A stretch of DNA of 51,926 nt. Origin: a virus. The notes below the pieces were generated by a model that was given only the letters and a program-made list of their open reading frames with translations, ran no database searches and was not told the origin of the DNA. This document shows, in pieces, positions 1-44,591 of this stretch (positions are counted from its first letter, which is position 1; each line of letters begins with the position of its first letter). The translations under genes were made by a program, and so were the position numbers. The stretch lies in the IMG/VR virus record IMGVR_UViG_3300031949_000054, positions 1-51,926 of that record; one strand, given 5' to 3'.

Positions 1-127
1 TTCTTCAGCCAGTCGTAACCGGTGGATCCAATGGCGGGAAAGTATGGGACGAGTTGGCCAACGGTCCTGATCTTGCGCGGGTCGTCATCCGGGAGATGAA
101 CCCTGGCGAAAAGGTCGGCCACCACCA
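1..127. repeat. Terminal direct repeat, copy 1 (identical to 51800..51926); circular-assembly overlap or terminal redundancy
   Basis: Read directly: bases 1-127 (ttcttcagccagtcgtaacc...aaggtcggccaccacca) recur base for base at 51800-51926. The unique sequence is therefore 51,799 bp. Confidence 0.95.
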
Positions 128-5068: not shown

Positions 5069-5071
5069 CGC

Positions 5072-15706: not shown

Positions 15707-16216
15707 TCAGTCGAGCGCGGTCTTCTTCGGCTTGGGGTGGGACTGCCGGCCGGCGAGCACCAGCGTGAAGGCGATGCGGCGCGCGATGTCCTTCACGTCC
15801 TGGACCTCGCCGTCCTCACCGACAACGTCCCCGGGCAGCTGCAGCTCGGCGGTTTCCTTCATCCCCAGACGCACCTTCGCCCAGAAGATCGCCGCCGCGG
15901 CGCTCGTGGCGGTGAGGCGCAGGAGGTTGCCGCCCGCCTGGATGTTCGCCTTCAGGATCCCGGTGTCGAGCTCGCGGCGGAAGTACTTTCGGAGCGTGAC
16001 CGGGGAGATCGGCCGGTGCGTCTTGGGGTTAAGGATGATGAGGACCTGTCTGTCCTCGGGGATCCCCAGGCCCGCCATCGCGGTCACCATGTTCGACTGC
16101 TCGGTGGAGGGCTTGAAGCCTCCGCCCGGTGGTCGCCCGGCGCGGCGCTTACCGTTTATCTTTGCTTGCGGTGCGGCGCTTGGCGATGACGTCGAAGCTC
16201 GCTTTTTCCTTGGCAT
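15707..16216 (-). CDS. Putative terminase small subunit
   Basis: 169-aa ORF. It has a basic N-terminus with AGRPPGG, an HTH-like MAGLGIPEDRQ..SPVTLRKYFRREL, and ..AAAAIFWAKVRLGMKE, all typical of small terminases. Confidence 0.55.
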   Translation of the reverse strand: MPRKKRASTSSPSAAPQAKINGKRRAGRPPGGGFKPSTEQSNMVTAMAGLGIPEDRQVLIILNPKTHRPISPVTLRKYFRRELDTGILKANIQAGGNLLRLTATSAAAAIFWAKVRLGMKETAELQLPGDVVGEDGEVQDVKDIARRIAFTLVLAGRQSHPKPKKTALD

Positions 16217-17642
16217 GGGTGGCGGTGCCCTTGGTGGCGTCCTGCCAGCGGCGCACGATCACGTCGGCGTACAGGGGGTCCAACTCGATCGCGTAGCAGG
16301 CGCGCCCGAGCTGTTCGGCCGCCATCAGGGTACTCCCGGAGCCGGCGAAGATGTCGAGTACGATCTCGCCCTCGAGGCTTGAGTTGGCGATCGCGCGGCG
16401 CGCAAGCTCAACAGGTTTCTGGTTGGGATGCAGGGTATTGTCCTTCCCGTAGCCGTTGTCGCGGCTCACCTCCCACAGGTCCTGGGCGCCGCCGCCGGCC
16501 TCGAGCAGAAGCGCTTGGTCTGGGGCCAGGTGTACGTGCCGGATCTTGCGGCCTTTGGGCTGGGTGCTGGTTACGTGGATCTCGCCTTCCTTGGTCGTGA
16601 TCGTCACTCCCGCGCCGATCGTCGTACGAAGGCCTGCGGCGGGGCCATGGGCGCTTACCCGCCACACGGTGGACTGATCCCTCCCTCCGTGCCAGGCGGC
16701 GCGCACGCCTTGCCTGGCAGCGTAGAAGCAGGGCTCATGGGCCCATCGGTAGTCGGCCCACCCCAGCACGATCTGGGGTTTCGCCCAGATGATGTAGGAG
16801 AGCTCCACTAAGCCGGTGTCGCGGAGGGCGGCGCTGTAGTCGTCCCGCGTTGCGCTCGCATGCCACACGTACCAGCCGGCGTCATCGGTGGTGTGCGGGA
16901 GCGCGGCGGCGAAGGCTTTCCGGAGGAGGTCCGCGAGTTGGCCGCGGCGCAGGTCGTCGCCCCGTATCATCTCGAAGTCCCCGCTCCTTGCGACATAGGA
17001 GACGCCGTAGGGCGGGTCGGTGAACACCATGTTCGCCCGACGTCCTAACGTCAGTGCCTCGAGCACGGTCTTCTTGGTTGCGTCCCCGTAGATCAGGCGG
17101 TGCGCGCCCATCAGCCAGATGTCCCCGGGCTGGGAGATCGCCTTTCGCTGCAGCGCTGGGGTTGCGGGCTCCTCCGGGTCCTGGGTCCGGGGTTCCAGGG
17201 CAAAGGCGATCTCGGGGAGGTTAAAGCCGGTCAGCTCGAGATCGAACCCCATGTCCTTCAGGGCCGAGAACTCCGCGGCGAGCAGGTCCTGGTCCCATCC
17301 GGCGTCTTCTGCTGCTCGGTTGTCGGCGAGCAGGTAGGCGCGCTTCTGGGCCGTCGAGAGGCCTGTGAGCTCGATCACGGGTACGCGCTGCATCCCGAGT
17401 TGCTTCGCCGCCTGGAGCCTGCCGTGGCCCGCCAGGATGCCGTTCTTGCCGTCGACCAGGATCGGGTTGGTCCACCCGTGCGCGCGGATCAGTTTGACGA
17501 GCTTGTCGATCTGCGCCGGGGTGTGAGTCCTGGGGTTCTTTGGGTCGGGCTTCAGGTTGCCGACATAGCGGTACTCGATCTTCAGCTGGCCGCCGTGGGC
17601 CTGCTTTTTTATAGCCGACACGTAACCGCCTCCCTGAACCAC
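16149..17642 (-). CDS. ParB-like nuclease domain fused to a beta-class DNA (N6-adenine/N4-cytosine) methyltransferase
   Basis: 497-aa ORF. ParB N-terminal motif (NPRTHTPAQIDKLVKLIRAHGWTNPILVD..GHGRLQAA), motif IV FTDPPYG, and C-terminal motif I LDIFAGSGST. Confidence 0.85.
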   Translation of the reverse strand: MVQGGGYVSAIKKQAHGGQLKIEYRYVGNLKPDPKNPRTHTPAQIDKLVKLIRAHGWTNPILVDGKNGILAGHGRLQAAKQLGMQRVPVIELTGLSTAQKRAYLLADNRAAEDAGWDQDLLAAEFSALKDMGFDLELTGFNLPEIAFALEPRTQDPEEPATPALQRKAISQPGDIWLMGAHRLIYGDATKKTVLEALTLGRRANMVFTDPPYGVSYVARSGDFEMIRGDDLRRGQLADLLRKAFAAALPHTTDDAGWYVWHASATRDDYSAALRDTGLVELSYIIWAKPQIVLGWADYRWAHEPCFYAARQGVRAAWHGGRDQSTVWRVSAHGPAAGLRTTIGAGVTITTKEGEIHVTSTQPKGRKIRHVHLAPDQALLLEAGGGAQDLWEVSRDNGYGKDNTLHPNQKPVELARRAIANSSLEGEIVLDIFAGSGSTLMAAEQLGRACYAIELDPLYADVIVRRWQDATKGTATHAKEKASFDVIAKRRTASKDKR

Positions 17643-17915: not shown

Positions 17916-18521
17916 TCATTTCTCCTTCGGTGAGGGAGGGAGCGCGGCACCGTATCGGGCTGGGGTAGCCCCGATGTCCGGTTGAGTGATTGTTACTAGA
18001 CCATCTCGTACCAAACCTTTGAGGGCGCTTCGCACTGGAGTAACCGGGATTCCGGTTGCGTAAGAAATGTCCCGTATCGTGCTGTGTTCGTTCAGCGCCT
18101 CAAGAACTTTTTGCACACGAGCAGAGCGCGTTCGTTTCTGGATTCCTACACGTGGATCAACTTTCGGCCAGGGGAGCAGTTTCTCAACGTCGCCACGGCC
18201 TGCCGCCACATCCAAAGCATCGGATACGTCATCGCTCGTCTCGAAGATGCCGAACATATCTGCCATGCAGCCGATGACTAGGTAGAGTGCAGCGCAACGC
18301 TCCTGCCATGTCCCAATCGTTTCTGGGGCCGTGTGCTCAAACTCAGCGGCATCAGCCTTAACCGGCTGCCCCGCCTCTGCGTGATCCGATAGGGCGCGAA
18401 GGGCTGCAAGAATTGCGTGCTGATCCTCGCTGCCAAGTTCGGTTGATTGGCCGTCTTCATATTGCAGAAACAGAATGCCGCTACCATCGATCTGTTCTAT
18501 TAGTCTCGTCAACTCGCTCAT
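17916..18521 (-). CDS. Hypothetical protein with a C-terminal winged-helix-like domain (low-GC insert)
   Basis: I chose the start at MSELTRL (ATG 18521), which forms an ATGA overlap with the synthase stop. The C-terminus ..VQKVLEALNEHSTIRDISYATGIPVTPVRSALKGLVRDGLV looks MarR/wHTH-like. Confidence 0.6.
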   Translation of the reverse strand: MSELTRLIEQIDGSGILFLQYEDGQSTELGSEDQHAILAALRALSDHAEAGQPVKADAAEFEHTAPETIGTWQERCAALYLVIGCMADMFGIFETSDDVSDALDVAAGRGDVEKLLPWPKVDPRVGIQKRTRSARVQKVLEALNEHSTIRDISYATGIPVTPVRSALKGLVRDGLVTITQPDIGATPARYGAALPPSPKEK

Positions 18522-19546
18522 GGCCTTCCTTTCCTCACGAGTTCCCACGTTAGCGGTTCGCCAGCCCTCACCGCCCGGTATACGCGCATCCCCATGACCA
18601 GAGGCTTGTTCTTCGGCTCCATGCCGTCCCCCGGGCGTAGCGCCCGGACGTTGTGCTCGGTCAGCGGGTCGCCCTCGGCCATGTCGTAGGCCACATGCAG
18701 GGTGCGGCGCAGAGCGAGCATCGGGCGTTCGGCTTCGCTCGGGCCGTAGCTCTCGAATCCGACAGCGTCGATCGCATCGTGCACGGCTTGCACCAGGGTC
18801 TCCATGCCGAGGGGATCAAGCGAGAAGCTCTTGTCCGGGCCGAGCGTCGTAAACTCCCCCATGTGCTTCTCGATCATGTCGGCGCCCATGATCGCGGCGG
18901 CTACAGCGGCGCCTGATCCGGGCGTGTGGTCGGAGTATCCAATTTTGCAGTCGAAATGCTGGCGCATGTTCGCCATCGTGGCGAGATTCACCTCGGCCGC
19001 TGTGGCCGGGTAGACGCTCGAGCACTTGAGCAGCGTGAGGTTGCCCTGCGTTCCGCCGGCGTGGCGATAGGCCTGGACCGCATCGTCGATCTCGGCAAGG
19101 GTGGCCATGCCGGTCGAGATGATGATCGGCTTACCGGTGAGGGTGACGCGGGTGATCAGTTCGAGGTCGAGGATCTCAAAGGAGGCGATCTTGTAGATCG
19201 GGCATCCCAGCCGCTCGAGGAAATCCACGGCTGCGGGTTCGAATGGGGTGCTGAACACAGGGATGCCGACCTTTTCGCCCTCCTTGAAGATCTGCTCATG
19301 CCAGCTCCACGGAAGCGCGCAGCGGTTGTACAGGTCCCAGAGATTCTCCCCCTTCCATGGTCCCTCTGTGAGGGTGTGCTGCACGCTCGGGTGGACCATG
19401 CTCGTGGGCTCGTAGGTCTGCAGTTTGACAGCGTCGCAGCCGGCGCGCTTGGCCGCGCGCACGATCTCCAGGGCGCGTTCCATGTGCTGGCAGTGATTCG
19501 CGCCCATCTCCGCGACAATGAACGGGTACCGCGAGGCGCGCTTCAT
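18518..19546 (-). CDS. pseI: Nonulosonic acid synthase of the NeuB/PseI/LegI family (pseudaminic acid synthase favoured by context)
   Basis: Start trimmed to MKRASRYPFIVAEMGANHCQ (ATG 19546). TIM-barrel NeuB motifs are present, plus a C-terminal SAF-like ..RALRPGDGMEP..G.RVYRAVRAGEPLTWE. Confidence 0.85.
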   Translation of the reverse strand: MKRASRYPFIVAEMGANHCQHMERALEIVRAAKRAGCDAVKLQTYEPTSMVHPSVQHTLTEGPWKGENLWDLYNRCALPWSWHEQIFKEGEKVGIPVFSTPFEPAAVDFLERLGCPIYKIASFEILDLELITRVTLTGKPIIISTGMATLAEIDDAVQAYRHAGGTQGNLTLLKCSSVYPATAAEVNLATMANMRQHFDCKIGYSDHTPGSGAAVAAAIMGADMIEKHMGEFTTLGPDKSFSLDPLGMETLVQAVHDAIDAVGFESYGPSEAERPMLALRRTLHVAYDMAEGDPLTEHNVRALRPGDGMEPKNKPLVMGMRVYRAVRAGEPLTWELVRKGRP

Positions 19547-19760
19547 GACCAAAGGCCGGCACCCGGACCCATAAGCGGGCAGGGTATCCGGGCGCCGGTT
19601 TTCTCTGGCACTACGCTGAATGGGGCTCGGCCACGAGAGCAAGGGGAGTTACCCGCAATTTCCTTCGCGCGGCTCTCTCTCGCAAGAACGGCCCGCGCCC
19701 CATGACTGGCCACGTGCAGATTGCACACGCTCGGCCCCTCGGTGTATTCCTTTTCGATCC

Positions 19761-20294
19761 TCATTGCCGCCCCAGGAGTTCAAGAGTCCGGGCCGCGTCC
19801 TCGAGGGTCGCGGTACTGAAATCGCCACTCGCGGCGGTGCGCCTGAGTTCGGCCGCGAGCGTCGGGATGTTGCGCTTGGCGACCTGGATCGTGCGCGCGA
19901 GTTCACCCGCCTGGAAGTCCTGCTCGTTGTTCTCGATCGGCTTCACGACGTGCTTGGTGCCCTGCGCGACGAGGCTCACGATCACGAAGGGTCGCGAGGG
20001 TTCGGCTGGGCTCGCCGGTACCGCGCGGCGGGTCCCCACGGCCGGGATGCCCGGGGTGGCGGGTCTGCCCTCCGGGCGGTAGACCATCGCCGCTGGGGTC
20101 ACCTTCTGGTAGGCCATGCACTGGTCAAACGCACTCAGGTCCTCCTCTCGAATCAGCACGGTCATCTCGGGGTTCTGATGGCGGGCCTTCCAGAGCAGGA
20201 GCTGCAGCACCCTGTTGGGGTCGGCCGCTGCGAAGGCGTCGAGGACGTCGACGGGCGGCGGCGTGGCTTTCGGTTTTGCTTTCGCTTTCGTCAT
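19761..20294 (-). CDS. Hypothetical protein
   Basis: 177-aa ORF. Its ATG overlaps the TGA of the GNAT gene (ATGA). Confidence 0.6.
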   Translation of the reverse strand: MTKAKAKPKATPPPVDVLDAFAAADPNRVLQLLLWKARHQNPEMTVLIREEDLSAFDQCMAYQKVTPAAMVYRPEGRPATPGIPAVGTRRAVPASPAEPSRPFVIVSLVAQGTKHVVKPIENNEQDFQAGELARTIQVAKRNIPTLAAELRRTAASGDFSTATLEDAARTLELLGRQ

Positions 20295-20752
20295 GGTCTT
20301 TCTCCTGGTGGCAGCTGGTAGGTGTGCTGAATAACGCGAGCTCCCAGCTTCAAAAAGAGCGCGTGCGAGCGGGTGTTCCCTGGGGCTACGTTCGCGAGCA
20401 GCGGTCCTGGGTGCCTCTCTCGCAGGAGAGTAACCGCCCGGAAGGCGTAGCCCTTGCGCTGGTGGGTGGCAAAGATCGCGACCGCTACCTCGTTCGCGCG
20501 GGTGAGCGCGACCGAGCCGACCCGTTCCAGTCTCTGAAGCTCGAAGAAGGCTGCTTCGTATGTTTCCGGCCTGTCCTCGATCAGGTACCAGGCTTTGTAG
20601 GGGCGGGAGGCGACGAATGCCTTGTGGGCCTCGTAGCTTGGCATCTGCCGGTGTGAGATGTTCGCCTCGGGTGGGCGCTCCTGCAGCAGCTCGTAAAGGA
20701 TCCGCCCGGCTAAGGATGGACCCACGTCGTAGACGTCTGTCAGTCTCAGCAA
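20291..20752 (-). CDS. GNAT-family N-acetyltransferase, PseH-like
   Basis: I chose the TTG start at 20752, which lies 6 nt after AAGGAG. LLRLTDV..ILYELLQERPPEANISHRQMPSYEAHKAFV..YKAWYLIE resembles the PseH-type N-terminus. The upstream part of the track ORF 20291..21034 is Arg-rich noise. Confidence 0.6.
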   Translation of the reverse strand: MLRLTDVYDVGPSLAGRILYELLQERPPEANISHRQMPSYEAHKAFVASRPYKAWYLIEDRPETYEAAFFELQRLERVGSVALTRANEVAVAIFATHQRKGYAFRAVTLLRERHPGPLLANVAPGNTRSHALFLKLGARVIQHTYQLPPGERP

Positions 20753-20934
20753 TTCGCGCTCCTTTTCCACGGGCCTGCTATCTGCCAGCACGGGCTGCAG
20801 GCCCAGATGACGCCGCGGCCGTAGCAGGCGGGTTGTCCACAGGCTCCGCATGGCCTGGGGATAACTTTCCCGTCCGGGGTGAAGCCGCCCATGTTGATCT
20901 CCTTCGCGTTGGCCGTGCCCGGGTGGTGCATCAT
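20746..20934 (-). CDS. Small Cys-rich (zinc-ribbon-like) protein
   Basis: 62 codons from MMHHPG.. (ATG 20934, ATGA overlap with the HisF-like stop). Contains CGACGQPACYG..WACSPCW. Confidence 0.4.
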   Translation of the reverse strand: MMHHPGTANAKEINMGGFTPDGKVIPRPCGACGQPACYGRGVIWACSPCWQIAGPWKRSANC

Positions 20935-21851
20935 TGGTGTCGCCCGATGAGCCCGAGAATCTCCTCCTCGGATACCTCTCCGCGCCGGTCCCACAGCATG
21001 TCGAAGACCTCCCTCGGTACCGGGGGGGCACCATGCTTCTGGGCTTCCTCCCAGACCATTTCCTTCAGGCGAGGGTCGCTCAGATCGCCGGTGATTTCCA
21101 TGGGTTCTGGGAGCCTGGTCTCGATCCCGTGTTCGGCGAGATAACGTGCGGCTTCCAGCGGGGTCTGATCGGTGAACTGGAACATGGCGCCAGCGGCTAC
21201 TGCGTCTGCGCCGGCCTCAATCGCCTCGAGCAGATGCTGGTACGTGCCGGCGCCGCCGTGAGCGATCACCGGGATGCTTACATAGTTGCTCACTGCTCGG
21301 ATTATCGGCAAATCGTAGCCTTCCATCGTGCCCTCGCGGTCGATCGATGTCAGCAGAATTTCGCCTGCGCCGTGTTGTTCCAAATACATAGCCCAACGGA
21401 CCGGCCTGCGGCGGCGCGCATATTCAGGGACGCCCTTGAACACGACAAAACCACCACGCACATCGGCGGCGGCGACAAGCGCTTGGCTGCCGACTCTATC
21501 CGCAGCCTCGCGTAAAAGATTAGGGACATGAAGAGTTGCAGCACCGATCACCACCTTGTCGGCGCCGGCGCGGAGCAGCGCTCGCACGTCGTCGACTGAC
21601 CGGATTCCTCCGCCGACAGCGAGCGGCATGAAACAGACTTCAGCGAGCTCGGCGACCAGATCCAGGTCCGGACCACGGCCTTCTGCGGTGGCGGCGACGT
21701 CCAGCAGCATGAGCTCGTCCACGCCGCGCGTCTGGTGGATGCGCACCGCTTGGGCGGCAAGGCCGACCGTTCTCCAGGAATCAAAGCGCGCGCCCTTCAC
21801 CATCTGCCGCCCTCGGCACAGGATCGTCGGGATGATGCGCTTGGAGAGCAT
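20931..21851 (-). CDS. HisF/WbuZ-like imidazole-glycerol-phosphate-synthase cyclase-subunit homolog (glycosyl amidation partner) with a ~55-aa C-terminal extension
   Basis: Start trimmed to MLSKRIIPTILCRG (ATG 21851). HisF motifs ..DELMLLDV.. and ..PLAVGGGIRSVDDVRALLRAGADKVVIG.. are present. Confidence 0.85.
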   Translation of the reverse strand: MLSKRIIPTILCRGRQMVKGARFDSWRTVGLAAQAVRIHQTRGVDELMLLDVAATAEGRGPDLDLVAELAEVCFMPLAVGGGIRSVDDVRALLRAGADKVVIGAATLHVPNLLREAADRVGSQALVAAADVRGGFVVFKGVPEYARRRRPVRWAMYLEQHGAGEILLTSIDREGTMEGYDLPIIRAVSNYVSIPVIAHGGAGTYQHLLEAIEAGADAVAAGAMFQFTDQTPLEAARYLAEHGIETRLPEPMEITGDLSDPRLKEMVWEEAQKHGAPPVPREVFDMLWDRRGEVSEEEILGLIGRHQ

Positions 21852-22093
21852 CAGCCTCTGCCTTGCGCTTGGATCACTTTCAGGATGCAGTCCGAAAGCG
21901 CCCAGGCTGGGCGCTTTCCCCACCCACGCTCTAGGCTTGGATGGTGCTGCGCTTCGTAATAATCTTGGTGAAATGGCCACCACCTTCTACGAATGCGGAA
22001 TAGCCGCATGTTGGCGTACTTCACGATCCTGTTCGCGTCGCCCTCGCGAGCCTCGTCACGCAGGTCAAGTTCCCGGCGGGTCTCGCGCGTCAC
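21851..22093 (-). CDS. Hypothetical Arg/Trp-rich 80-aa protein occupying the position where a HisH/WbuY glutaminase would be expected
   Basis: The GTG start forms a GTGA overlap with the amidotransferase stop. The stop forms a TGATG overlap with the HisF-like start. No glutaminase motif is present. Confidence 0.4.
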   Translation of the reverse strand: MTRETRRELDLRDEAREGDANRIVKYANMRLFRIRRRWWPFHQDYYEAQHHPSLERGWGKRPAWALSDCILKVIQAQGRG

Positions 22094-23196
22094 GCGAACT
22101 CCTTCAAAATGGGGCGCTTGTCGTAGGGGTGTGCGAAAAGATCCTTGTTCGTGAAGCGGGCGAGGGTATCCATCAGTTCGCCCTCGGACATCCGGATCTG
22201 CTCGAGCACCCTGGCGAGCGGGACGCCGGCATAGACATCTGGGAAGAGCCCGTCGATCTCGCGCACGTTCCGCATGGCCTCATCCCGTGAGAGCTTATTG
22301 TGGCGGATGTCCACTGAGAGTTGCGCGGCGGCCCGCCCGTAGCCGTACTTGCGGTACATCGCATGGTCGTGCAGGCCCGTCATCGCGTTGTCAAGGTTCT
22401 CCGCCGGCCACCAGTTCGCCGGGGTTGGGAGGTGCTGGCGCATGCCGGCGTCGGCCGCGGCGCGGGCGTTGCGCTCGGCGTCCCAGCGGAAGTACTGTCC
22501 CATGAAGTGGGCCTCGATCCCCGCCGCGGCGACAAAGCGCTCGTCAAGGGGGCGGTAAGGCTGCAGGTCGCGCTCGGAGAGGCTTCGTTGTCCGACCAGG
22601 TCCTGTGCTCGCAGGCCGAGAAAGCCGCCAAACTCCGTGACCCAGCGCCGCGTCATCGCGCGCGCGTCGGTCGTGCCCTGGGGGCCTCCGTAGGCTTCTT
22701 GCGGGTTTTCGCCGTACAAAACCAGTGGAATAATCATGTTTCGCGCCACCGCCCAGGGGGTGTTGAAGATGGTGGCGTGCTCGGGCCAGCTGATATCGCC
22801 CACGAGCTCCAGGCCCAGGCGGTTTAGCTTCGAGCGCACCTTCCGGTTCGGGGTGACCTCGATCGTGTCGGCGTAGCGGGCGAGGTTGTCGATGTTGAAG
22901 CGCCCGATCGGCGTCAGCATGCACGTGGAGGCAGTTACCACCAGGGGCCGGTAGCCAAGCTCGATCACCTTCAGCACCTGCCAGTGGCTGTCCTTGCCGC
23001 CTGAGCTCGCCACGATGCAGTCGTAGCCGCTCGCTGGGTTGTGCTTCTCGCGCATCAGGGTGTGGAACTCCTCCTCGCGCGCGGCCCAGTCGACGCGGCC
23101 CCTATTGGCGAAAGAGCGGCAGGCCGAGCACACCCCGTCCTCGAATGGCGTGTCGGGGCGGGCCGTAGGTATCACACAATTGCGGCAGCGGTTCAT
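22090..23196 (-). CDS. N-acetyl sugar amidotransferase (PseA/WbuX/WbpG type, PP-loop ATPase)
   Basis: 368-aa ORF. N-terminal CRNC..CSAC zinc-ribbon-like pairs, followed by the PP-loop IVASSGGKDS. Confidence 0.85.
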   Translation of the reverse strand: MNRCRNCVIPTARPDTPFEDGVCSACRSFANRGRVDWAAREEEFHTLMREKHNPASGYDCIVASSGGKDSHWQVLKVIELGYRPLVVTASTCMLTPIGRFNIDNLARYADTIEVTPNRKVRSKLNRLGLELVGDISWPEHATIFNTPWAVARNMIIPLVLYGENPQEAYGGPQGTTDARAMTRRWVTEFGGFLGLRAQDLVGQRSLSERDLQPYRPLDERFVAAAGIEAHFMGQYFRWDAERNARAAADAGMRQHLPTPANWWPAENLDNAMTGLHDHAMYRKYGYGRAAAQLSVDIRHNKLSRDEAMRNVREIDGLFPDVYAGVPLARVLEQIRMSEGELMDTLARFTNKDLFAHPYDKRPILKEFA

Positions 23197-23278
23197 TGGC
23201 TAATCCGATGGAATTCCTTTATCCCGTGCGAGAGTCTCACCCTGCGCCAGAACTCACCAGCGGCGTGTTTGCCTGCCA

Positions 23279-23845
23279 TCATGGCTTCTCCATCAACCAG
23301 TACGTGCAGCGGTCAAAGCCGTTCGCCTCGCCGGTGTGCAGGATCGTCAGCCCGAGCGCCTCATACAGCTTGCCGTACGGGCGCTTCCACAGGCGGTTCT
23401 CGTAGCCGCGGTACTCGATCATCTGCTCAACATCGGAGGCGTATTCGATCGCGACGATCCATCGTGAGCTCGCGTCGACGATCTCCCCCATAAACGCGGG
23501 AAGGTTCTCCGGGGCTACGTGGATGAGGACGCCCGCGGTGAACACGAGGTCGTACCGCCCTGGGGGCTCATCAAGCCTGCCGGTTGAAACGCCGACCAGG
23601 CCGGCGGCACGCGCCTGCTCTGCCGCCCTCGGGTTGATGTCGCACCCGTGGAGCATCGCCTTTGAAATCTCCGCGATCGCCGAGAGGTTCCAGCCCGCGT
23701 TGCACCCGACCTCGTAGACGCTCCGGGCTTCGGTGAAGCGCATGATGTCGGTCCAGAACGGGATGCGCGCGCGCCAGTCCACCCGGTTGCGCGCGGTGTA
23801 GGCGTTCCCGAACTCCCCCGCCCAGAACTCCTCCTGGGGGATCAT
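23279..23845 (-). CDS. SAM-dependent methyltransferase resembling the pseudaminic-acid-biosynthesis-associated methylase
   Basis: 188-aa ORF. Motifs seen: EEFWAGEFGNAYTARN, EVGCNAGWNL (motif I), GVLIHVAP, and IEY..IEYRGYENRLWKRPYG. Confidence 0.8.
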   Translation of the reverse strand: MIPQEEFWAGEFGNAYTARNRVDWRARIPFWTDIMRFTEARSVYEVGCNAGWNLSAIAEISKAMLHGCDINPRAAEQARAAGLVGVSTGRLDEPPGRYDLVFTAGVLIHVAPENLPAFMGEIVDASSRWIVAIEYASDVEQMIEYRGYENRLWKRPYGKLYEALGLTILHTGEANGFDRCTYWLMEKP

Positions 23846-24414
23846 CGCATTCCTTTCTCAGAACGCCGCCGCGCCTGTTGCGAGACGGACATCTTCGCTC
23901 TTGCTGAGGCTGGGAGCCTAGTACCAAGTTTAGCTGCGGCCATGCGCTTCCGGGCCTCCACGGAGAAGGTGCGCCCTTTCTGGGCCTTGGACATCCGCTC
24001 ACGAGATTCAGGCGTGACGACCCGACGCTTGAGAGCCAATTTGATCCGTTCTCTGTGCACATCAGACAGCCGTCGACCGCGTAGGGATTCCGATATCTTC
24101 GCCGCGACTGTCGGCAAGAATGGTACTGGCTTCTTTCCTCCTGGGCTTATGTTGTAGCCACGTGGGTCTAGTGTGCAAAACACAGCGATGGCGCGCGTTT
24201 CTGTCTCATCGAGATCGACTGGCTGTACGACGGCAAGCACCGTAAGGCGCGGCACCCCGTACTTTCGCCAAGCCATATAGACGGCCCCTTTCGTGCTTGC
24301 GTCGCTGGCCTTGTGGTGACGACGAAACCGTTGAAGCGCTGTCCCGACAGTCGCGCCGATATATGACTTTCCCGATGCAAAGTCTAGGCGGTACAGTTCA
24401 CCCATTTTCCCCAT
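23842..24414 (-). CDS. GIY-YIG homing endonuclease with NUMOD3-like repeats
   Basis: 190-aa ORF. LYRL..KSYIGAT (GIY-YIG), RFRRH, ETETRAI and GYNISPGG. Three C-terminal S/ARxRMSxAQKG-type repeats. GC looks lower than in the neighbouring genes. Confidence 0.85.
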   Translation of the reverse strand: MGKMGELYRLDFASGKSYIGATVGTALQRFRRHHKASDASTKGAVYMAWRKYGVPRLTVLAVVQPVDLDETETRAIAVFCTLDPRGYNISPGGKKPVPFLPTVAAKISESLRGRRLSDVHRERIKLALKRRVVTPESRERMSKAQKGRTFSVEARKRMAAAKLGTRLPASARAKMSVSQQARRRSEKGMR

Positions 24415-25120
24415 CCCTAAGCTTTATCGCAGCGTAGAGCAGTTCCGCCATCTCCCAATCGCTTACGGTGTTGATGTCCTGGCAGCGGTAGCGTGGGATC
24501 GGCACGCCGAGCGAGGCGGGACTGAAGATCGGCGCATCGCGCACGAACGACGCCGTTCTCCCCCAGTACCACTGCCCGGCGTCGTGGTAGTAGGTCGGGA
24601 GATCCTGGCTTCTTGCGTTCGCGATGGCCTCGGTAAGCGAGCCGGTGACGACCGCCCCATCTGGGCCGAGCTCGAAGGCCCGCTGCAGTTCGGCGTCGTA
24701 CGTGGTGACGGAGAAGGCGTAGACCGGGTCCCAGTCGGTGCGGGTGAGCGCCCGGAAGCCTGCCTGCAGGTCCGCGGGGGTCATCATCGGGGCGGTCGCG
24801 TAGATGCAGCAGGCGAGGTCGTAGGCGAAGTGCGGGCCGGCTGGCTTGTGGATCGCGAGCAGCGCCTCCCGCATCACCGCCTGGGTGCCGGTGTGGTCAT
24901 CGGCGAGCTCCGCGGGCCGACGGTGGACCGAGGCGCCGTAGCGCGCCGCGACCTCGGCGATCTCATCGGAGTCTGTCGAGACGAGGATGAGATCGAACAG
25001 GGCGCTCGCTTTCGCCGCCTCGATCGAGTAGGCGATGATCGGCCGACCGTGGAAGGGCTGGATGTTCTTGCCGGGGATGCGCTTGCTACCGCCCCGGGCG
25101 GGGATGATTGCGATTTTCAT
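24398..25120 (-). CDS. pseF: CMP-nonulosonate synthetase (PseF/NeuA-type cytidylyltransferase)
   Basis: 240-aa ORF. MKIAIIPARGGSKRIPGKNI and ..RRPAELADDHTGT.., as in acylneuraminate/pseudaminate cytidylyltransferases. Confidence 0.85.
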   Translation of the reverse strand: MKIAIIPARGGSKRIPGKNIQPFHGRPIIAYSIEAAKASALFDLILVSTDSDEIAEVAARYGASVHRRPAELADDHTGTQAVMREALLAIHKPAGPHFAYDLACCIYATAPMMTPADLQAGFRALTRTDWDPVYAFSVTTYDAELQRAFELGPDGAVVTGSLTEAIANARSQDLPTYYHDAGQWYWGRTASFVRDAPIFSPASLGVPIPRYRCQDINTVSDWEMAELLYAAIKLRDGENG

Positions 25121-26527: not shown

Positions 26528-27745
26528 TCACGTTTCAATCACCGGACGGTAATCCCGCCAGTCTTTGTAGAGGAGATTACGCCCTCCTGGGGTTGTCCTC
26601 CAAGTAGAGGCGACTGCTGCTTGCGGATTGCGACCAGCCTCGCCCGCGTACTGCTCTGGGTTGATGGGCAGCCAGTATTTCCGGAAAGTGCCGTCTGGTT
26701 CCGGGGATCGGTTGGTGACGCAGATCCTAGCGATCGGCCGGCCAACGTTCAGGTTTTCCATGTAGAGGTCCCCGAAGAGAGGATCGCTTGCCACGGGCTT
26801 CATACCGCTGTCGAGGATGTACCGGGCCTCGCCGTAGCGCTCGATCATGATCCGGCGGACCTCGGCGTTCTTCTCGTCTGTCATATGCTTGAGCGTGATC
26901 CACTCCGGCTTGACAACCACGAAGGCTGGCACGAGAACTCCGTGCCAGAAGTAGAGGTTTTCGATGTCGGACTCCAGGGCTGCGGATCGGTCGTTGTGCA
27001 GCCTTCGGCCGTTCGGCGTTTGTTCGACGTGGACCGTAGGCTTCGCGACCCAGTAGAGGGTGTCCTCGGTCCAGTGCAATATCCAAGCGCCAGCAAGGAA
27101 GGCCTCGAGTAGCGGGTCGGCCCAAGCCCTGACTTGCGGCGGGGGGGTTCCGAATGCCGTGGTGACGATCCAGGATAGGTCGAATCTCCACCAACCCCAG
27201 CCGTATGCCTGGATGCACCACGCCGCGAAGCGGTGAAGTGAAGTAAATGCGGCGCGGACGTCGCCGTCGGCGAGGGCGTCGCGGGCGGCGCGGGCGTCGC
27301 GGGCGTCGCGGGCGGCGAGGGCGTCGCGGGCGGCGCGGGCGGCGAGGGCGGCGAGGGCGTCGAGGGCGTCGCGGGCGTCGAGGGCGTCGCGGGCGTCGCG
27401 GGCGTCGAGGGCGTCGCGGGCGTCGCGGGCGGCGAGGGCGTCGCGGGCGGCGAGGGCGTCGAACTCGCGCGCGGCGAGGGCGGCGAGGGCGGCGAGGGCG
27501 TCGCGGGCGGCGAGGGCGGCGATTGATGGATAGGGTTTCACGATGTCATCGAGCACTTGGTTAACATATTTTTTGAGCGATGGCTCGGTTTCCAGGTCCC
27601 AGTCGATCGGAAGCCGCTTGATCGTCCGGTTTATGTTGAGCGCGCGAAGATAGGTCCCCAGGTGCTGCTCGACGAGGACAGCATCGAGCACACCCGGGTA
27701 ATCACACGCGGCGTCGTAGCGCTTCCGAAGTTCAGTCTGCGACAC
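26528..27745 (-). CDS. Repeat-containing protein: an Ala-rich (A-[L/R]-[A/D]) tripeptide array followed by a conserved bacterial-type domain of unknown function
   Basis: GTG start at 27745 overlaps the end of 27732..28073. The C-terminal ..GRRLHNDRSAALESDIENLYFWHGVLVP..EKNAEVRRIMIERYG.. matches a DUF I recall (possibly DUF6745), which is often preceded by ARD/AWD-type repeats. Confidence 0.65.
   Translation of the reverse strand: MSQTELRKRYDAACDYPGVLDAVLVEQHLGTYLRALNINRTIKRLPIDWDLETEPSLKKYVNQVLDDIVKPYPSIAALAARDALAALAALAAREFDALAARDALAARDARDALDARDARDALDARDALDALAALAARAARDALAARDARDARAARDALADGDVRAAFTSLHRFAAWCIQAYGWGWWRFDLSWIVTTAFGTPPPQVRAWADPLLEAFLAGAWILHWTEDTLYWVAKPTVHVEQTPNGRRLHNDRSAALESDIENLYFWHGVLVPAFVVVKPEWITLKHMTDEKNAEVRRIMIERYGEARYILDSGMKPVASDPLFGDLYMENLNVGRPIARICVTNRSPEPDGTFRKYWLPINPEQYAGEAGRNPQAAVASTWRTTPGGRNLLYKDWRDYRPVIET
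27269..27517. repeat. In-frame tandem array: 26 units of 9 bp (G[G/T]CG[A/C]GGGC on the plus strand) plus one 15-bp variant unit
   Basis: Parsed unit by unit: 21 units (27269-27457), then gtcgaactcgcgcgc (27458-27472), then 5 units (27473-27517). Seven of the nine positions are invariant in all units. Confidence 0.95.
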
Positions 27746-28073
27746 GGCGAACCTCCGGACCGAAGTCCTCGACCTGGAAGGCTTGGCGGTAGATGCCCTT
27801 ATCAAGGACGATCGCGGCGTGCTCCTCGTGTTTGAGTGTGACTCGCTCGAGCACCTGCAGGTAGCGCTCGGCGCCGGCGTCCCAGTAGCGGACCTTGTGC
27901 TGCTCCTTCTTCGGGACATCAATGCGGTGAGCGTGTCCGGTGACCTCGCCGTAGGCGAGGACGATGCCTCGGGCTTCCGGTTTGATTTCTTTTGCGCCCT
28001 CTGGGATGGTGGCGAGGGTGGTAAGTACGAGGGCGACGTCGCCCTGCCGATACGTCGTTGTGGCTCGTTTCAT
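27732..28073 (-). CDS. Conserved phage hypothetical protein (small beta-barrel type)
   Basis: 113-aa ORF. RQGDVALV..VLAYGEVTGHAHRI..LKHEEHAAIVL is a pattern I recall from many phage ORFs of unknown function. Confidence 0.65.
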   Translation of the reverse strand: MKRATTTYRQGDVALVLTTLATIPEGAKEIKPEARGIVLAYGEVTGHAHRIDVPKKEQHKVRYWDAGAERYLQVLERVTLKHEEHAAIVLDKGIYRQAFQVEDFGPEVRRVAD

Positions 28074-33547: not shown

Positions 33548-33811
33548 ATGACTACCGCCTATCCCCTGCAGTGGCCGCCCGGCTGGCCGCGCACGCCCTC
33601 GGATAAGCGGGAGCGCTCGCGCTTTGACACCAGTGTGTCGAAGGCGCTTGGCTTTCTCCACGAGGAGGTGCGGCGGCTCGGGGCGAAGTCCCTCGTCATC
33701 TCGAGCAACTATACCCTCGGGCCTGCTCCGGAGGATTCCGGGGTGTGTGCCTATTTCGAGTTGGGAATTATATACTTGACTCCCACAGCGGAATCAGTGG
33801 GTTATGAGTAG
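33548..33811 (+). pseudogene. 5' fragment of a J-domain protein gene, interrupted by the methyltransferase cassette
   Basis: MTTAYPLQWPPGWPRT..SGVCAYFE is followed by 16 element-encoded codons and then TAG. The frame matches the 3' fragment once the element and one TSD copy are removed. Confidence 0.7.
33763..33788. repeat. Left terminal inverted repeat GGGAATTATATACTTGACTCCCACAG
   Basis: Read directly. Its partner is at 34895-34920. Confidence 0.9.
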
Positions 33812-34907
33812 CCGAGTCATCATCGGCGACTGCCGCGCTGTGCTGCCGACATTGGAAGCCGGGAGCGTGCAAACGTGCGTCACGTCGCCGCCCTACTGGG
33901 GACTGCGCGACTACGGGCACGCCGGGCAGATCGGGCTTGAATCGACGCCAGCCGAGTACGTCGCCGAAATGGTTACCGTGTTCCGGGAAGTGCGCCGCGT
34001 GCTGCGCGATGACGGGACGCTGTGGCTGAACCTTGGCGACAGCTACGCCAGTAGCGGCGGTGCCACGCCCGGCAAGAGAAGCGAAGGGATCGGACAGGCC
34101 GAAGTAGGCGAAGGACTGCGCCGCCCGACACGCAAGGGCTCTGGACGCGCTGACGGCATTGTGACCGGAGAAAGCCCAAGGAACCGCGACGGCGCACCGC
34201 CTTGCGATCTGCCTGCGAAGAACCTTGTTGGCATCCCGTGGCGCGTGGCCTTCGCCCTGCAAGCGGACGGCTGGTATCTCCGGCAGGACATCATCTGGGC
34301 GAAGCCGAACCCGATGCCGGAGAGCGTGCGCGACCGCTGCACGAAGTCGCACGAGTACCTGTTCCTGCTGGCGAAGTCGGAGCGGTATTACTTCGATCAG
34401 GACGCCATCCTTGAGCCCGTAGCGGCTGCCAGCGTGGCGCGGCTGTCTCAACCCACGCTAGGCGAGCAAGAGGGCTCTGACCGCGTTCCTGGCAAGACCA
34501 ACGGCAACATGAAAGCCGTGTCGCGCAGCGGGAACAAGGAACGGAAACCGGCGCGCGCGCGCGGGGTGCCCGTGGACACGAACGGCGAGACGAATGGAGC
34601 CGTTGCAGGGTCGGTCCCGTGGGAAGGCTCGGAGCGCAACAAGCGCAGCGTCTGGACCGTCACCACCCAGCCGTTCAAGGGAGCCCACTTCGCCACCTTC
34701 CCGCCCGCGCTGATCGAGCCCTGCATCTTGGCAGGCAGCAAGCCCGGCGACATCGTGCTTGACCCGTTTGGGGGCAGCGGCACTACAGGGCAAGTGAGCG
34801 AGGCGCTAGGCAGGAAGTGGCTGTTGATCGAACTGAACGGCGAATACGCGAATCTGTGCGCCGACCGAACCCGGCAGACCGGCATGGAGCTGGCCTGTGG
34901 GAGTTAA
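33804..34907 (+). CDS. Beta-class DNA methyltransferase, SPPY type (N4-cytosine suggested)
   Basis: 367-aa ORF. Motif IV VTSPPYWGLRDY near the N-terminus, IIWAKPNPMPES, and motif I LDPFGGSGTT near the C-terminus. The stop lies inside the right IR. Confidence 0.9.
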   Translation: MSSRVIIGDCRAVLPTLEAGSVQTCVTSPPYWGLRDYGHAGQIGLESTPAEYVAEMVTVFREVRRVLRDDGTLWLNLGDSYASSGGATPGKRSEGIGQAEVGEGLRRPTRKGSGRADGIVTGESPRNRDGAPPCDLPAKNLVGIPWRVAFALQADGWYLRQDIIWAKPNPMPESVRDRCTKSHEYLFLLAKSERYYFDQDAILEPVAAASVARLSQPTLGEQEGSDRVPGKTNGNMKAVSRSGNKERKPARARGVPVDTNGETNGAVAGSVPWEGSERNKRSVWTVTTQPFKGAHFATFPPALIEPCILAGSKPGDIVLDPFGGSGTTGQVSEALGRKWLLIELNGEYANLCADRTRQTGMELACGS

Positions 34908-35411: not shown

Positions 35412-36255
35412 GACGACCGGCATCGCCTGGACACGCTCGACGTTCAACCCGTGGATCGGCTGCACGAAGGTCGGACCTGGGTGCGACCACTGCTACGCCG
35501 AGACGCTGGATGCTCGCCACAAGTGGGGCGGGGTCGTGCATTGGGGTGCTGGCGTGTCGCGCTACCGCACGAGCGAGCACGCTTGGAAGCAACCGCTCGC
35601 GTGGGAGAAGAAGGCCGCGGCCGGCGACAAGCCCTGGCGCGTCTTCTGCGCTTCGCTCGCCGATGTGTTCGATAACGAAGTGCCGGAGGGTTGGCGTTTA
35701 GACCTTTACCACCTGATCGAGCGCACGCCGAATCTATCGTGGCTGCTCGTCACTAAGCGCATCGGGAATGTGGAGCGCATGGTGAAAGATTCGTGGTTCG
35801 GACACTACGGTTTCCCGCAGAACGTCCGCCTGCTCATCACCGTCTGCGACCAGGAGGAGGCCGACCGTGACATCCCGAAGCTGCTCGCGCTGCCGTGCAA
35901 GAACGGAGTTTCGTATGAACCTGCTTTGGGTCCAATCGATTGGTTGATCGCCATGAGCGGCGGCTGCGACAAGCACGGATACCGAAAGCCCCTACTCACA
36001 GATCGCAAGCTCGACTGGATCATCGTCGGCGGCGAGAGCACCCAGGGCGCAGGGAAGGCGCGGCCGTTCGTGTTGGGATGGGGTAAAGACACGATTCGCC
36101 AATGCCGCGCGGCTTCGGTGCCTGTGTTTTTCAAACAAGCCGGCAGCAACGCGACGAACCGGGAAGGCGTGCCACATCCGTTCAAGGATAGGGCCGGTGC
36201 AGATCCTTCTGAATGGCCGGATGAACTCCGAGCCCAAGAGTTTCCCGATGCGTGA
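35404..36255 (+). CDS. Phage Gp37/Gp68 family protein (DUF5131-like)
   Basis: Start at MAETTGIAWTRSTFNPWIGCTKVGPGCDHCYAE, the characteristic N-terminus of this family. 283 aa. Confidence 0.7.
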   Translation: MAETTGIAWTRSTFNPWIGCTKVGPGCDHCYAETLDARHKWGGVVHWGAGVSRYRTSEHAWKQPLAWEKKAAAGDKPWRVFCASLADVFDNEVPEGWRLDLYHLIERTPNLSWLLVTKRIGNVERMVKDSWFGHYGFPQNVRLLITVCDQEEADRDIPKLLALPCKNGVSYEPALGPIDWLIAMSGGCDKHGYRKPLLTDRKLDWIIVGGESTQGAGKARPFVLGWGKDTIRQCRAASVPVFFKQAGSNATNREGVPHPFKDRAGADPSEWPDELRAQEFPDA

Positions 36256-36700
36256 TCCCGCAAAAATCAAGGCCCGCAAGCAGCGGTATCTGGAGCGCCA
36301 GAAGGTGAAGAAGTACGGTCCTGGCGCTGCTGGCCAGGACATGCGCGGGCGGCACGGCAACCACGCCAAGGGCGAGAAGAACGCGCGCTGGAACGGCGGT
36401 CGCTGGCACCATCCTGACGGTTATATCGGCATTGCTGTTCCGGAAGGCCACCACCTGCGCCAAGCGCACGGCTATGCGTTCGAGCACCAACTCGTCGCAG
36501 AGGAAATGCTCGGGCGCCGCCTACGTGACGACGAGGATGTTCACCACAGGAACGGAAAGCGCGCCGACAACCGCCCGGATAACCTGGAGGTCAAGCTCAA
36601 GACCGACCATGCGCGGGAACACGCGAACGCCAGCGAACGTGACGCGCTCGGCCGCTTCGTCCCGGACAAACCGCGGCACGTGCAGGAGTTCCCGGCGTGA
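36248..36700 (+). CDS. HNH endonuclease
   Basis: Start at MRDPAKIK (ATG 36248, overlapping the previous stop). Contains ..DVHHRNGKRADNRPDNLEV..HAREH. Confidence 0.8.
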   Translation: MRDPAKIKARKQRYLERQKVKKYGPGAAGQDMRGRHGNHAKGEKNARWNGGRWHHPDGYIGIAVPEGHHLRQAHGYAFEHQLVAEEMLGRRLRDDEDVHHRNGKRADNRPDNLEVKLKTDHAREHANASERDALGRFVPDKPRHVQEFPA

Positions 36701-39397: not shown

Positions 39398-39594
39398 GCT
39401 CCGCGTTCTTCCCCTTCCTGGCGTCTGCCTTGCCCTGGCGGGAGAGCGCGGATGTGCACGCGCACGTCGGCCCGGCGGATCGAGAGCAGCTCCTGGAGCG
39501 TGCAGCCGCAATCGAGCTCGGTCGCCTGGATGAACCGCACGCGCACGGGATCCACGTGGCCGGTAGCGGGGTTGATCACTTGGGCTAAGTTCAC
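39394..39594 (-). CDS. Hypothetical 66-aa protein
   Basis: GTG 39594 forms a GTGA overlap with the endolysin stop. The stop forms an ATGA overlap with the next gene. This corresponds to the last 66 codons of track ORF 39394..40023. Confidence 0.4.
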   Translation of the reverse strand: MNLAQVINPATGHVDPVRVRFIQATELDCGCTLQELLSIRRADVRVHIRALPPGQGRRQEGEERGA

Positions 39595-40196
39595 GCGAGC
39601 TCCTCTTTGGCGGCTTCCCATCGAGCGATGCGGTCGTCCTCGCCGTTCAAGCCTCCGTTGATCGCATAGGTGATCGCCTTGAATTCCCCGAGGTCGGCGA
39701 GATCGTTTAAGTTCACCCCGACCGGGACGCCGTAGTCCTTGGCTGCTTGGGAGAGCCGCAGGCCCGCGCCTACCGACCAGAACCAGCCGGCGGAGCGCGT
39801 GGCGAGCGCGGGCTCCTCGAGGAGTTCTGGCTCGTCTTCCAGCGGGACGTTGAGCGCCTGGCCGCAGGCGGCGTAGTTGCCCCGGCCGGTGATCTGGATC
39901 AGGCCCCGCCCGCGGTAGCGGAAGCCGTCGCCCTCGTAGAGGTTGCCCAGGACCGCAGCCTTGCGGGATGGCGGCTCGTAGGCGCGCTGGGCGGGCGTGG
40001 GGCCCCAGATCTCGCGCACCCACAGAAACCCGTTTGACTCGTGGCCGAGCTGGGCGAGGAAGGCCGCCTGGCGCCCGGGGGTGTCGATGTCGAACTCCTC
40101 CATGGTCGTGTTCAAGGGGCCGAGGAAGGCCTCCAGGCGCAGGTGGTTCGTCTTCGGGGCGACTGCGCGCAGATCATCGGTGGTGATCGGGTCCAT
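39591..40196 (-). CDS. Endolysin, glycoside hydrolase family 19 (chitinase-like)
   Basis: 201-aa ORF. AAFLAQLGHESNGF and YRGRGLIQITGRGNYAACG motifs. Confidence 0.85.
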   Translation of the reverse strand: MDPITTDDLRAVAPKTNHLRLEAFLGPLNTTMEEFDIDTPGRQAAFLAQLGHESNGFLWVREIWGPTPAQRAYEPPSRKAAVLGNLYEGDGFRYRGRGLIQITGRGNYAACGQALNVPLEDEPELLEEPALATRSAGWFWSVGAGLRLSQAAKDYGVPVGVNLNDLADLGEFKAITYAINGGLNGEDDRIARWEAAKEELA

Positions 40197-43985: not shown

Positions 43986-44591
43986 TCATGACTTCTTTAC
44001 CGGGGTCGCGCGGTATTTCGCGGCGCGGCCGTTGCCGTCCCTTGCGGCGACGGTGAACTCGTATTCTGGAGCCTCGACGGGTACGGGCTGGGGTGTGGTT
44101 TTCATGGCAGCCTCGAGCCCGTCCAGGCGCTTCACAGTATCCGCGTGGGCTTGGGTGGCGATGGTGAGGAGCCTTCGCAGTTCGGCGTTCGTCGCGCGCT
44201 CGCGCTCGACGGTGGCGAAGCTCGAGGTGAGCTGCCCGCTCGCCTCGGTCTGCGCGGCGGTCATCTCCTGGACCATGAGGGTCAGGTCCGCGATGTCTTT
44301 GCGCATGGTCTCGGTGGTCTGGCCCTCGGGCGTGGCCTCGGCCTGGAGGCGGGCGGCTTCCTCTTGCTCAAGGACGAGTCTGCCGTATGCTCGCGTGGTC
44401 TCGTCGCGCTCGCGCTCGGCTTGCTCGCGCGCGAGGCCCGCCTCCTCCCGTAGGCGCACCTCCGCGGCAATGTCTGAGCGCATCTGCGCGCGTGCCTCCT
44501 CCAACGCAGAGTTATCCACAGGTTGTCCACCGGTTGGCTTGGCGAGGCTTGCGAGCCCCGCGGAGGCGATCGTGTGCAGTTTCGTGGTCAT
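43986..44591 (-). CDS. Coiled-coil protein
   Basis: 201-aa ORF rich in Glu/Arg/Ala heptad-like sequence. It overlaps the giant gene's stop by 4 nt. Confidence 0.6.
   Translation of the reverse strand: MTTKLHTIASAGLASLAKPTGGQPVDNSALEEARAQMRSDIAAEVRLREEAGLAREQAERERDETTRAYGRLVLEQEEAARLQAEATPEGQTTETMRKDIADLTLMVQEMTAAQTEASGQLTSSFATVERERATNAELRRLLTIATQAHADTVKRLDGLEAAMKTTPQPVPVEAPEYEFTVAARDGNGRAAKYRATPVKKS

Follow-up and report, generated by a model that had tools for sequence, protein, structure and literature searches.

A protein-coding minisatellite in an early gene of a widespread environmental phage family

The viral record IMGVR_UViG_3300031949_000054 was analyzed over its full length of 51,926 nt, a stretch termed the window below. 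On its minus strand lies a gene (26528..27745), here called the array gene, that includes a tandem array of 9-bp units (27269..27517). Comparison with related loci shows that this array is a genuine protein-coding minisatellite, or variable number of tandem repeats (VNTR), carried by a widespread family of environmental phages and prophages. The reading we favor, to which we assign a probability of roughly 0.7, is that such a minisatellite resides in a phage early gene and most likely encodes a length-tolerant helical stalk or spacer.

A base-by-base parse resolves the array into 26 units of the form G[GT]CG[AC]GGGC and one unit of 15 bp, and thereby reproduces exactly the pattern, coordinates, and counts given in an earlier note on this DNA. 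That note had also correctly assigned the coding strand, the frame, and the unit translations. On the minus strand, each of the 26 perfect 9-bp units reads GCC-C[G/T]C-G[A/C]C, and the array comprises ARD (11 copies), ALA (10), ALD (three), ARA (two), and AREFD (one), which amounts to 83 residues of the form (Ala-[Arg/Leu]-[Asp/Ala])n. The interrupted AREFD unit (27458..27472, minus strand) is ARD into which 6 bp (GAG-TTC) have been inserted, and the only GCG alanine codon of the array sits within it. This unit is private to the window's lineage and is missing from the related loci L007 and L008. Two degenerate units encoding DGD and VRA (27251..27268, minus strand), identified from the Tandem Repeats Finder output and from reading the sequence, bound the array on its C-terminal side; L007 and L008 instead have regular units here, which continue up to the residues AFTSL. 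Because the degenerate units are included, the Tandem Repeats Finder call (27249..27518, period 9, 30.3 copies, score 295) is wider than the array itself. The same array scores 325 and 337 at periods 18 and 27, respectively.

The array can also be read on the opposite strand as an open reading frame (ORF) encoding (RRG)n (27247..27564, plus strand). This shadow ORF is not a gene, because the minus-strand frame alone continues into conserved flanking domains.

The uniformity of the silent positions goes past codon bias. Within the array, alanine is encoded by GCC in 38 of 39 instances, arginine by CGC in 14 of 14, leucine by CTC in 13 of 13, and aspartate by GAC in 15 of 15, whereas the same codons account for 50%, 60%, 46%, and 83% of usage across a set of ten long genes from the window. 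Matches to GKCGMGGGC number 41 over the whole window, compared to 11.5 ± 3.0 in shuffled sequences; 26 of these matches are contiguous within the array, and 15 lie dispersed elsewhere, at about chance level. High-identity units thus stand head to tail in numbers beyond chance, as they do in a coding VNTR.

The complete gene encodes 405 amino acids followed by a stop, and its GTG start codon at 27745 is preceded by GGAGG. This start overlaps the stop of an upstream partner gene by 14 nt. It is backed by homologs that begin at the equivalent residues SQTEL..ACDYPG and by an identical 405-aa call on the source contig in ENA. The array occupies residues 77–159 and is flanked on both sides by conserved sequence. 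The N-terminal domain (27518..27745, minus strand; residues 1–76) is conserved across an alignment of 121 proteins, lies outside Pfam coverage, and has the consensus ..ACDYPGvLD..VE..L..YL.AL...R.I.RLP..W.L....PSL..yvn.vLDD... The C-terminal region (26528..27250, minus strand) was delimited by a Pfam match, the 121-protein alignment, and an AlphaFold2 model. Residues W176, W208, W221, K235, H250, D260, E262, N293, E295, R297, R298, and R303 of this region are nearly invariant. A profile search identified the conserved domain that had been noticed downstream from the array as Pfam PF20530 (DUF6745), matched at residues 225–369 (26639..27073; profile positions 43–186 of 206). The score of 81 bits against a gathering cutoff of 27 (E = 9.3e-23) places the protein within this family. 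Overlooked at the outset were the N-terminal domain, the adjacent partner gene, and the family-wide rule of two variable sites described below.

Evidence for concerted evolution comes from arrays at homologous loci. According to 68 codon tables, a single array uses essentially one alanine codon, one arginine codon, and one wobble base shared by aspartate and alanine. The sets that are used differ between lineages and include GCC-CGC-GAC, GCC-CGT-GAC, GCA-CGG-GAC, GCG-CGG-GAT, GCG-AGG/ATG-GAC, GCC-AGA/ATA-GAC, GCT-CGC-GAT, and others, such that 31 different 9-nt consensus units are found among 63 nonredundant arrays. Uniform codons within arrays, together with different sets between lineages, constitute the signature of concerted evolution that is characteristic of coding VNTRs.

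The variation that does exist within arrays is confined in a specific way. When a column is counted as polymorphic at a minor-allele frequency of at least 0.1, the second position of codon 2 is polymorphic in 55 of 62 arrays and the second position of codon 3 in 61 of 62. The first position of codon 2 is polymorphic in 26 arrays, and each wobble column in just one or two. The pattern of two binary sites originally described for the window is therefore a rule of the entire family. Moreover, the alternatives found at unit position 2 are single-nucleotide neighbors of the lineage's own arginine codon. Lineages with CGC carry CTC (Leu) as well as AGC (Ser) and CAC (His), those with CGT carry CTT (Leu), and those with CGG carry CTG (Leu) and CAG (Gln). 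Likewise, AGG is accompanied by ATG (Met), AGA by ATA (Ile), and either AGG or CGG by TGG (Trp). At unit position 3, the alternatives are GAC and GCC or GAT and GCT.

Closely related alleles reveal how readily the arrays change in length. Over 918 nt of flanking sequence (204 nt upstream and 714 nt downstream), loci L002 and L003 are identical, and yet their arrays hold 24 versus 12 units and also differ in content. Similarly, L005 and L009 carry 35 versus eight units, and L020 and L021 carry 32 versus 51, with no mismatches in the 690 nt downstream from the array in either pair. In total, eight allelic series with identical protein flanks were recovered from clusters of at least 90% identity, and one of these includes arrays of 13, 19, 23, 25, and 40 units. 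Variation in these series affects the interiors of the arrays, and their ends are conserved. By comparison, the degenerate, nonrepetitive array shared by proteins P0062 and P0268 is length-stable. Copy number therefore differs among near-identical alleles, as is expected of a coding VNTR, although the window's own lineage was compared only with the ~90%-identical L007 and L008. Flanking DNA of the window is ~90% identical to that of these two loci, the arrays are not colinear, and the L007 array has gained SRD units. An exact search of JGI metagenome contigs with a 44-nt flank returned only the contig of L007 and no further alleles of the window's lineage.

Across all relatives, array length ranges from about four units (P0061, 328 aa) to 113 (P0023, 658 aa), which bears out the length variation among genomes that had been anticipated. 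The earlier note had proposed recent expansion or homogenization by slippage or gene conversion, and it named as the contrary outcome that homologs would keep the number and order of units while diverging synonymously. Homolog comparisons gave the opposite result, and both the lineage-uniform codon sets and the eight allelic series, with different arrays between identical flanks, support the proposal. Judging from these sequences, array turnover is far faster than point substitution. Because the unit is 9 bp long, the reading frame is never lost when units are gained or lost. One further comparison involves P0243 and P0001, which match exactly in the 3′ half of the array and in the C-terminal domain but share only 46% identity in their N-terminal domains. 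The junction of this mosaic must fall inside the array, and reflects either recombination through shared units or a chimeric metagenome assembly.

Silent variation is erased within arrays by homogenization, with the codon set that becomes fixed differing from one lineage to the next. A straightforward series of events could account for these patterns. Turnover would occur by replication slippage or unequal recombination between units. In the simplest reading, the array of each lineage would be repeatedly rebuilt from an ARD founder unit, after which changes from arginine to hydrophobic residues and from aspartate to alanine would re-arise and be kept.

Such regularity might alternatively indicate that the DNA itself is selected, for example as a G-quadruplex tract, a recombination hotspot, or some other signal, with the peptide being incidental. 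The plus strand of the window, which is the template strand, has a GGG tract every 9 nt (23 tracts in the 25-unit span scored by the array finder) and matches the sequence motif of four G3 tracts separated by N1-7. In addition, the domain-swap junction of P0243 falls inside the array. Of 63 arrays, however, 30 have this G-quadruplex motif on the template strand and 11 on the coding strand, whereas 22 lack it altogether; thus, neither the motif nor its strand is conserved in homologous arrays. The previously suggested propensity for G-quadruplex formation accordingly holds as a motif on the plus strand of the window and does not hold as a conserved property. This potential is a by-product of combining GCC with CGN codons. 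Constraint at the DNA level, which had also been raised, is not supported, since lineages encode one peptide repeat through 31 distinct consensus units and have no conserved DNA motif. What is conserved is the peptide, in a single frame continuous with the flanking domains. A primary role for the DNA is therefore very unlikely.

The composition of the peptide was established from a pool of 110 nonredundant arrays comprising 3045 units. Position 1 of the unit is alanine in 98.2% of cases. Position 2 is arginine (49%), leucine (24%), serine (6.5%), glutamine (5.4%), isoleucine (4.6%), methionine (3.3%), or tryptophan (1.9%), with lysine at ~0 and glycine at ~1%. Position 3 is aspartate (52%) or alanine (37.5%), with glutamate at 1.1%. 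Proline and glycine are almost excluded, and the net charge is –0.05 per unit. A function as a DNA mimic was rejected on the basis of this near-zero charge. Lysine (from AGR) and glutamate (from GAY) are each one mutation away and yet are almost absent, even though silent changes do sweep arrays. The near absence of these reachable residues implies that selection distinguishes arginine from lysine and aspartate from glutamate. Judging from sequence comparison, selection acts on the peptide and neither on the DNA nor on the length of the array.

A structural model of the protein was generated with AlphaFold2 by using 121 sequences, and has a mean predicted local distance difference test (pLDDT) score of 86 and a predicted template modeling (pTM) score of 0.75. 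Both flanking domains exceed a pLDDT of 90, with values of 91–98 in the N-terminal domain. The array is modeled as two helices at residues 73–119 and 124–159. The high pTM suggests packing of the N-terminal region against the C-terminal region, from which the array would project as a helical hairpin. The peptide most likely serves as a length-tolerant alpha-helical stalk or spacer, for which the model suggests a two-helix hairpin that extends from a body composed of both flanking domains. In a quasi-uniform sequence whose charges are complementary, any shift in register due to gained or lost units would be expected to be tolerated. The long single helix originally envisioned for this segment is weakly supported; instead of one helix, the model has two with a break in mid-array, pLDDT values there are 55–78, and the composition does not resemble that of known single-helix domains.

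More familiar helical architectures were considered and rejected. The autocorrelation of hydrophobic residues at unit position 2 is flat at lags 2–12 and slightly negative at lag 1 (–0.11), and there is no heptad-like pattern of the kind found in a coiled coil or an amphipathic helix. Single alpha-helix (SAH, or ER/K) domains are rich in Glu, Lys, and Arg, with ~80% of positions charged or polar and aspartate being rare (PMC5812594). Like these domains, the array is predicted to form a long helix between domains, has mixed opposite charges, and includes R(i)–D(i+4) pairs, of which there are eight in the window. Unlike SAH domains, which are Glu-rich, the array of the window is 47% alanine and 16% leucine, has only 36% charged residues, and uses aspartate as its acidic residue. 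The array therefore fails the periodicity test for a coiled coil and the composition test for a SAH domain. It has also been reported that peptides with at least three alanines per heptad aggregate (PMC5812594).

Several observations weigh against the reading of the array as a length-tolerant helical spacer, and some of these concern its structure. No periodicity of hydrophobic residues is present at lag 6 or lag 7, as would be expected of a defined helix–helix interface. The modest pLDDT of the array is a further concern, and the break at residues 119–124 is without glycine or proline and may be arbitrary. Aspartate, moreover, forms helices poorly and is seldom used in natural single alpha-helix domains. 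Furthermore, both the array protein and its partner are without functional annotation or fold match. Finally, the distant loci L076, L080–L086, and L097 carry a nonrepetitive connector or no array. These array-less relatives and the huge range of lengths fit an array that is merely tolerated.

If so, the array would be a functionless, slippage-prone insertion in a permissive linker, and selection would purge only variants that break the helix or are toxic. The essentially random order of units, which lacks periodicity, and the failure to recognize a function are in keeping with such a low-complexity expansion. Three features are more difficult to accommodate. First, the tripeptide rule is kept over 31 unit types and among lineages whose flanks are only 40%–65% identical. 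Second, arginine never becomes lysine and aspartate rarely becomes glutamate, although both are one-nucleotide changes. Third, polymorphism at replacement sites is ~30-fold above that at silent sites in almost every array, which looks like maintained heterogeneity and not like drift. We therefore consider a purely tolerated expansion unlikely.

Other points that detract from the helical spacer reading relate to assembly. The exact count of 26 + 1 units in the window is a figure from short-read assembly, since the source is a 51,940-bp ENA metagenome contig (ERZ27256953) assembled with MEGAHIT at k141. The length differences between L005 and L009 and between L020 and L021 correspond to deletions between internal repeats of ~48–57 nt, and collapse by a small-k assembler could equally produce the short alleles (L009, L020). 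Contig ends fall within the array at 36 of 91 related loci and elsewhere in the gene's upstream portion at only eight. The arrays evidently pose difficulties for assembly, owing either to internal repeats longer than k or to heterogeneous populations.

It might be argued from these facts that short-read de Bruijn assembly created the array itself or its unit count. In the window, however, the longest exact repeat inside the array is 44 bp, which is shorter than k = 141, and the contig is circularly closed; the assembly path is therefore unambiguous in principle. Loci L003, L004, and L012 carry an identical array in three independent assemblies derived from different samples and assemblers. The frame is preserved in all complete loci, and arrays are also present in Nanopore-based contigs (L091, L093) of metagenome-assembled genomes (MAGs). 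An assembly artifact is thus very unlikely.

Frameshifts were noted in both of the Nanopore-based contigs. In L093, a +1/–1 frameshift pair at ~4970–5230 causes five ALD-type units to be read as HST repeats until the original frame resumes. In L091, a frameshift at a G5 run closely precedes a pure (ARD)7 array at ~5180–5290. Either genuine mutations or Nanopore indel errors could account for these frameshifts.

The restriction of variation to two replacement positions per unit throughout the family raises the prospect of programmed diversification, either by a targeted mutator that resembles a diversity-generating retroelement (DGR) or by a contingency switch that permits phase variation against host defenses. 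The location in an early region among genes for recombination, methylases, and ParB, where anti-defense genes often lie, is compatible with such a role. Several findings make it highly improbable. A scan of ORFs that included all those of at least 180 aa in the window revealed no reverse transcriptase, no second repeat copy that could act as a template is present in the window, and the variation consists of G/T and A/C differences on one strand rather than being adenine-specific. The array was rejected as a DGR target on these grounds. A phase-variable contingency locus was rejected as well, because a 9-bp unit inside an ORF cannot switch the frame and all complete alleles are in frame. PADLOC found no match for the array gene, its partner, or the neighboring genes, and no match to anti-defense proteins was obtained. 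Furthermore, the alternative residues are simply those helix-compatible residues that are encoded by one-nucleotide neighbors of the arginine and aspartate codons.

Directly upstream of the array gene is the partner gene (27732..28073, minus strand), which codes for a 113-aa protein assigned to phrog_27831 and is probably translationally coupled to the array gene. A partner gene of ~110 codons adjoins the array gene in 37 of 38 complete loci, with the partner being upstream in 33 and downstream in four. Invariant motifs of the partner are RQGD, E-x-TGH-x-H, ER, H-x-E, Q, and E. Structure prediction yields an all-beta protein with a pLDDT of 85, for which no Pfam match and no fold match in the PDB (Foldseek, nothing below E = 0.29) were obtained. 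Assignment of the partner as a cupin, initially guessed from a G-x-x-x-GHxH motif, was dropped when the fold search gave no backing.

The frequent pairing of these genes invites a more speculative proposal, in which the array is the working part of a two-gene phage module. Its length and Arg/Asp pattern would be diversified within populations in an arms race with a host factor, and the invariant His/Glu cluster of the partner would act on or through the repeat. The partner could bind or modify Arg and Asp side chains, which would explain why arginine is never replaced by lysine and aspartate almost never by glutamate. At present we regard this proposal as doubtful. The gene pair follows recombination genes (RuvC in the window, RecT in L005, and PD-(D/E)XK in L006), and methylases and ParB genes are found nearby in what corresponds to a phage early region. 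This neighborhood fits a role in DNA metabolism or in host interaction without pinpointing one.

The family to which the array gene belongs is widespread. A protein search identified 154 relatives, nearly all of which contain PF20530, and a scan of IMG/VR identified 267. In GTDB, scanned with one genome per species, 15 loci were found, all of them in MAGs and none in isolate genomes. The MAG hosts include Caulobacteraceae, Hyphomonadaceae, Gallionella, Acidobacteriota, Verrucomicrobiota, and Planctomycetota. The three-part layout of N-terminal domain, array, and DUF6745 is common to hundreds of metagenomic relatives. One 56-kb viral contig (IMGVR_UViG_3300031820_000004) has two DUF6745 array genes near its opposite ends (L013 and L058), one with an R/L-type and the other with an R/M-type array, which indicates that paralogs can coexist in one phage.

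Searches of existing collections returned little that informs on function. A tblastn search of 50,697 GenBank phage records with the array protein produced no match, PHROGs gave only a marginal match to a family of unknown function, and NCBIfam gave nothing meaningful. When the full model of the array protein was compared by Foldseek to the PDB, nothing fell below E = 0.29, and a sequence-profile search of the PDB likewise yielded nothing. The only matches in BFVD were other DUF6745 proteins. With the array peptide alone as the query, one match in the protein database was left after low-complexity correction, and it was uninformative. The searchable literature holds nothing on DUF6745 or ARDARDARD, and the literature on phage VNTRs holds nothing on this family.

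Slippage in an in-frame repeat is an ordinary mechanism, and coding VNTRs under concerted evolution are a known class. The alpha C and Rib proteins of group B Streptococcus and the NANP repeats of the Plasmodium circumsporozoite protein are in-frame VNTR proteins shaped by slippage and concerted evolution. As in these systems, the array consists of near-identical head-to-tail units whose length is a multiple of 3 bp, has degenerate edges, varies in copy number among otherwise identical alleles, and is homogenized within lineages and divergent between them. It differs from them in having a 3-residue unit, in belonging to a cytoplasmic-type phage early gene rather than encoding a surface antigen, in the limitation of its polymorphism to two second-codon positions, and in that no immune or receptor selection is evident.

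A second parallel is the HsdS subunit of the type I restriction systems EcoR124I and EcoR124II, in which two or three copies of a TAEL repeat have a known effect on the spacing of DNA recognition. In both cases, a short in-frame repeat lies in a helical connector between conserved domains and the number of units sets the spacing, although for the array the helix is predicted. Unlike HsdS, the array ranges over more than a hundred units in copy number, has no known ligand, and is unrelated to HsdS in sequence or fold.

A closer relative is protein A0A7T8 of Microcystis phage Ma-LMM01, which has the same C-terminal DUF6745. The full-length predicted folds of this protein and the array protein align over 406 columns (Foldseek E = 4.5e-7), whereas their sequences are only 12% identical. 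On the basis of these predicted folds, the layout in which a helical connector joins an N-terminal domain to DUF6745 probably dates back to a common ancestor.

The genomic setting of the array gene is that of a tailed phage. An exact direct repeat of 127 bp at the ends of the window (1–127 and 51800–51926) indicates a complete genome of ~51.8 kb that is circular or terminally redundant. Genes for the large terminase, a portal or adaptor, the major head protein, and a tail protein are present, along with those for a P22-Cro-like protein, an O-like replication initiator, a RuvC-like resolvase, and DNA methyltransferases. One of the methyltransferases is fused to a ParB-like N-terminal domain (16149–17642, minus strand) and a second is located at 33804–34907 (plus strand). 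Scans for Rfam families and tRNAs were empty for the window.

Additional features of the genome were observed outside the array region. A minus-strand cluster (18518–25120) resembles a pathway for nonulosonic (sialic-like) acid biosynthesis and includes NeuB+SAF (18518–19642), a HisF-like His_biosynth protein (20931–21983), a SAM methyltransferase (23279–23845), and a CTP_transf_3 cytidylyltransferase (24398–25120), all on the minus strand. Other genes code for an HNH endonuclease (36197–36700), a GH19 lysin (39591–40196), and a 2255-aa ORF product (44588–51355, minus strand) that has a "large polyvalent protein associated domain 38" near its C terminus. A 66-bp unit is repeated 1.9 times with 87% matches at 42149–42272 among small ORFs. 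A 346-aa protein (8283–9323, minus strand) has a Pro/Ala-rich N terminus derived from imperfect 9-bp and 6-bp repeats, especially at 9202–9320. This is a second low-complexity coding repeat of the genome and is far less regular than the main array.

These findings have a practical consequence for the study of such phages. Short-read metagenome assemblies break systematically at the array, where they are interrupted at 40% of loci. The array may also yield collapsed or chimeric gene models, and unit counts from short reads are not to be trusted without reads that span the array. For the biology of the family, the analysis newly delimits a conserved two-gene unit, in which a partner of ~110 aa accompanies a protein composed of an N-terminal domain, a tripeptide VNTR, and DUF6745. 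Although the mechanism is ordinary, the unit pattern is unusually clean throughout the family. The array thus provides a clean natural case of concerted evolution in a coding repeat, and a test case for selection that acts on composition rather than on sequence.

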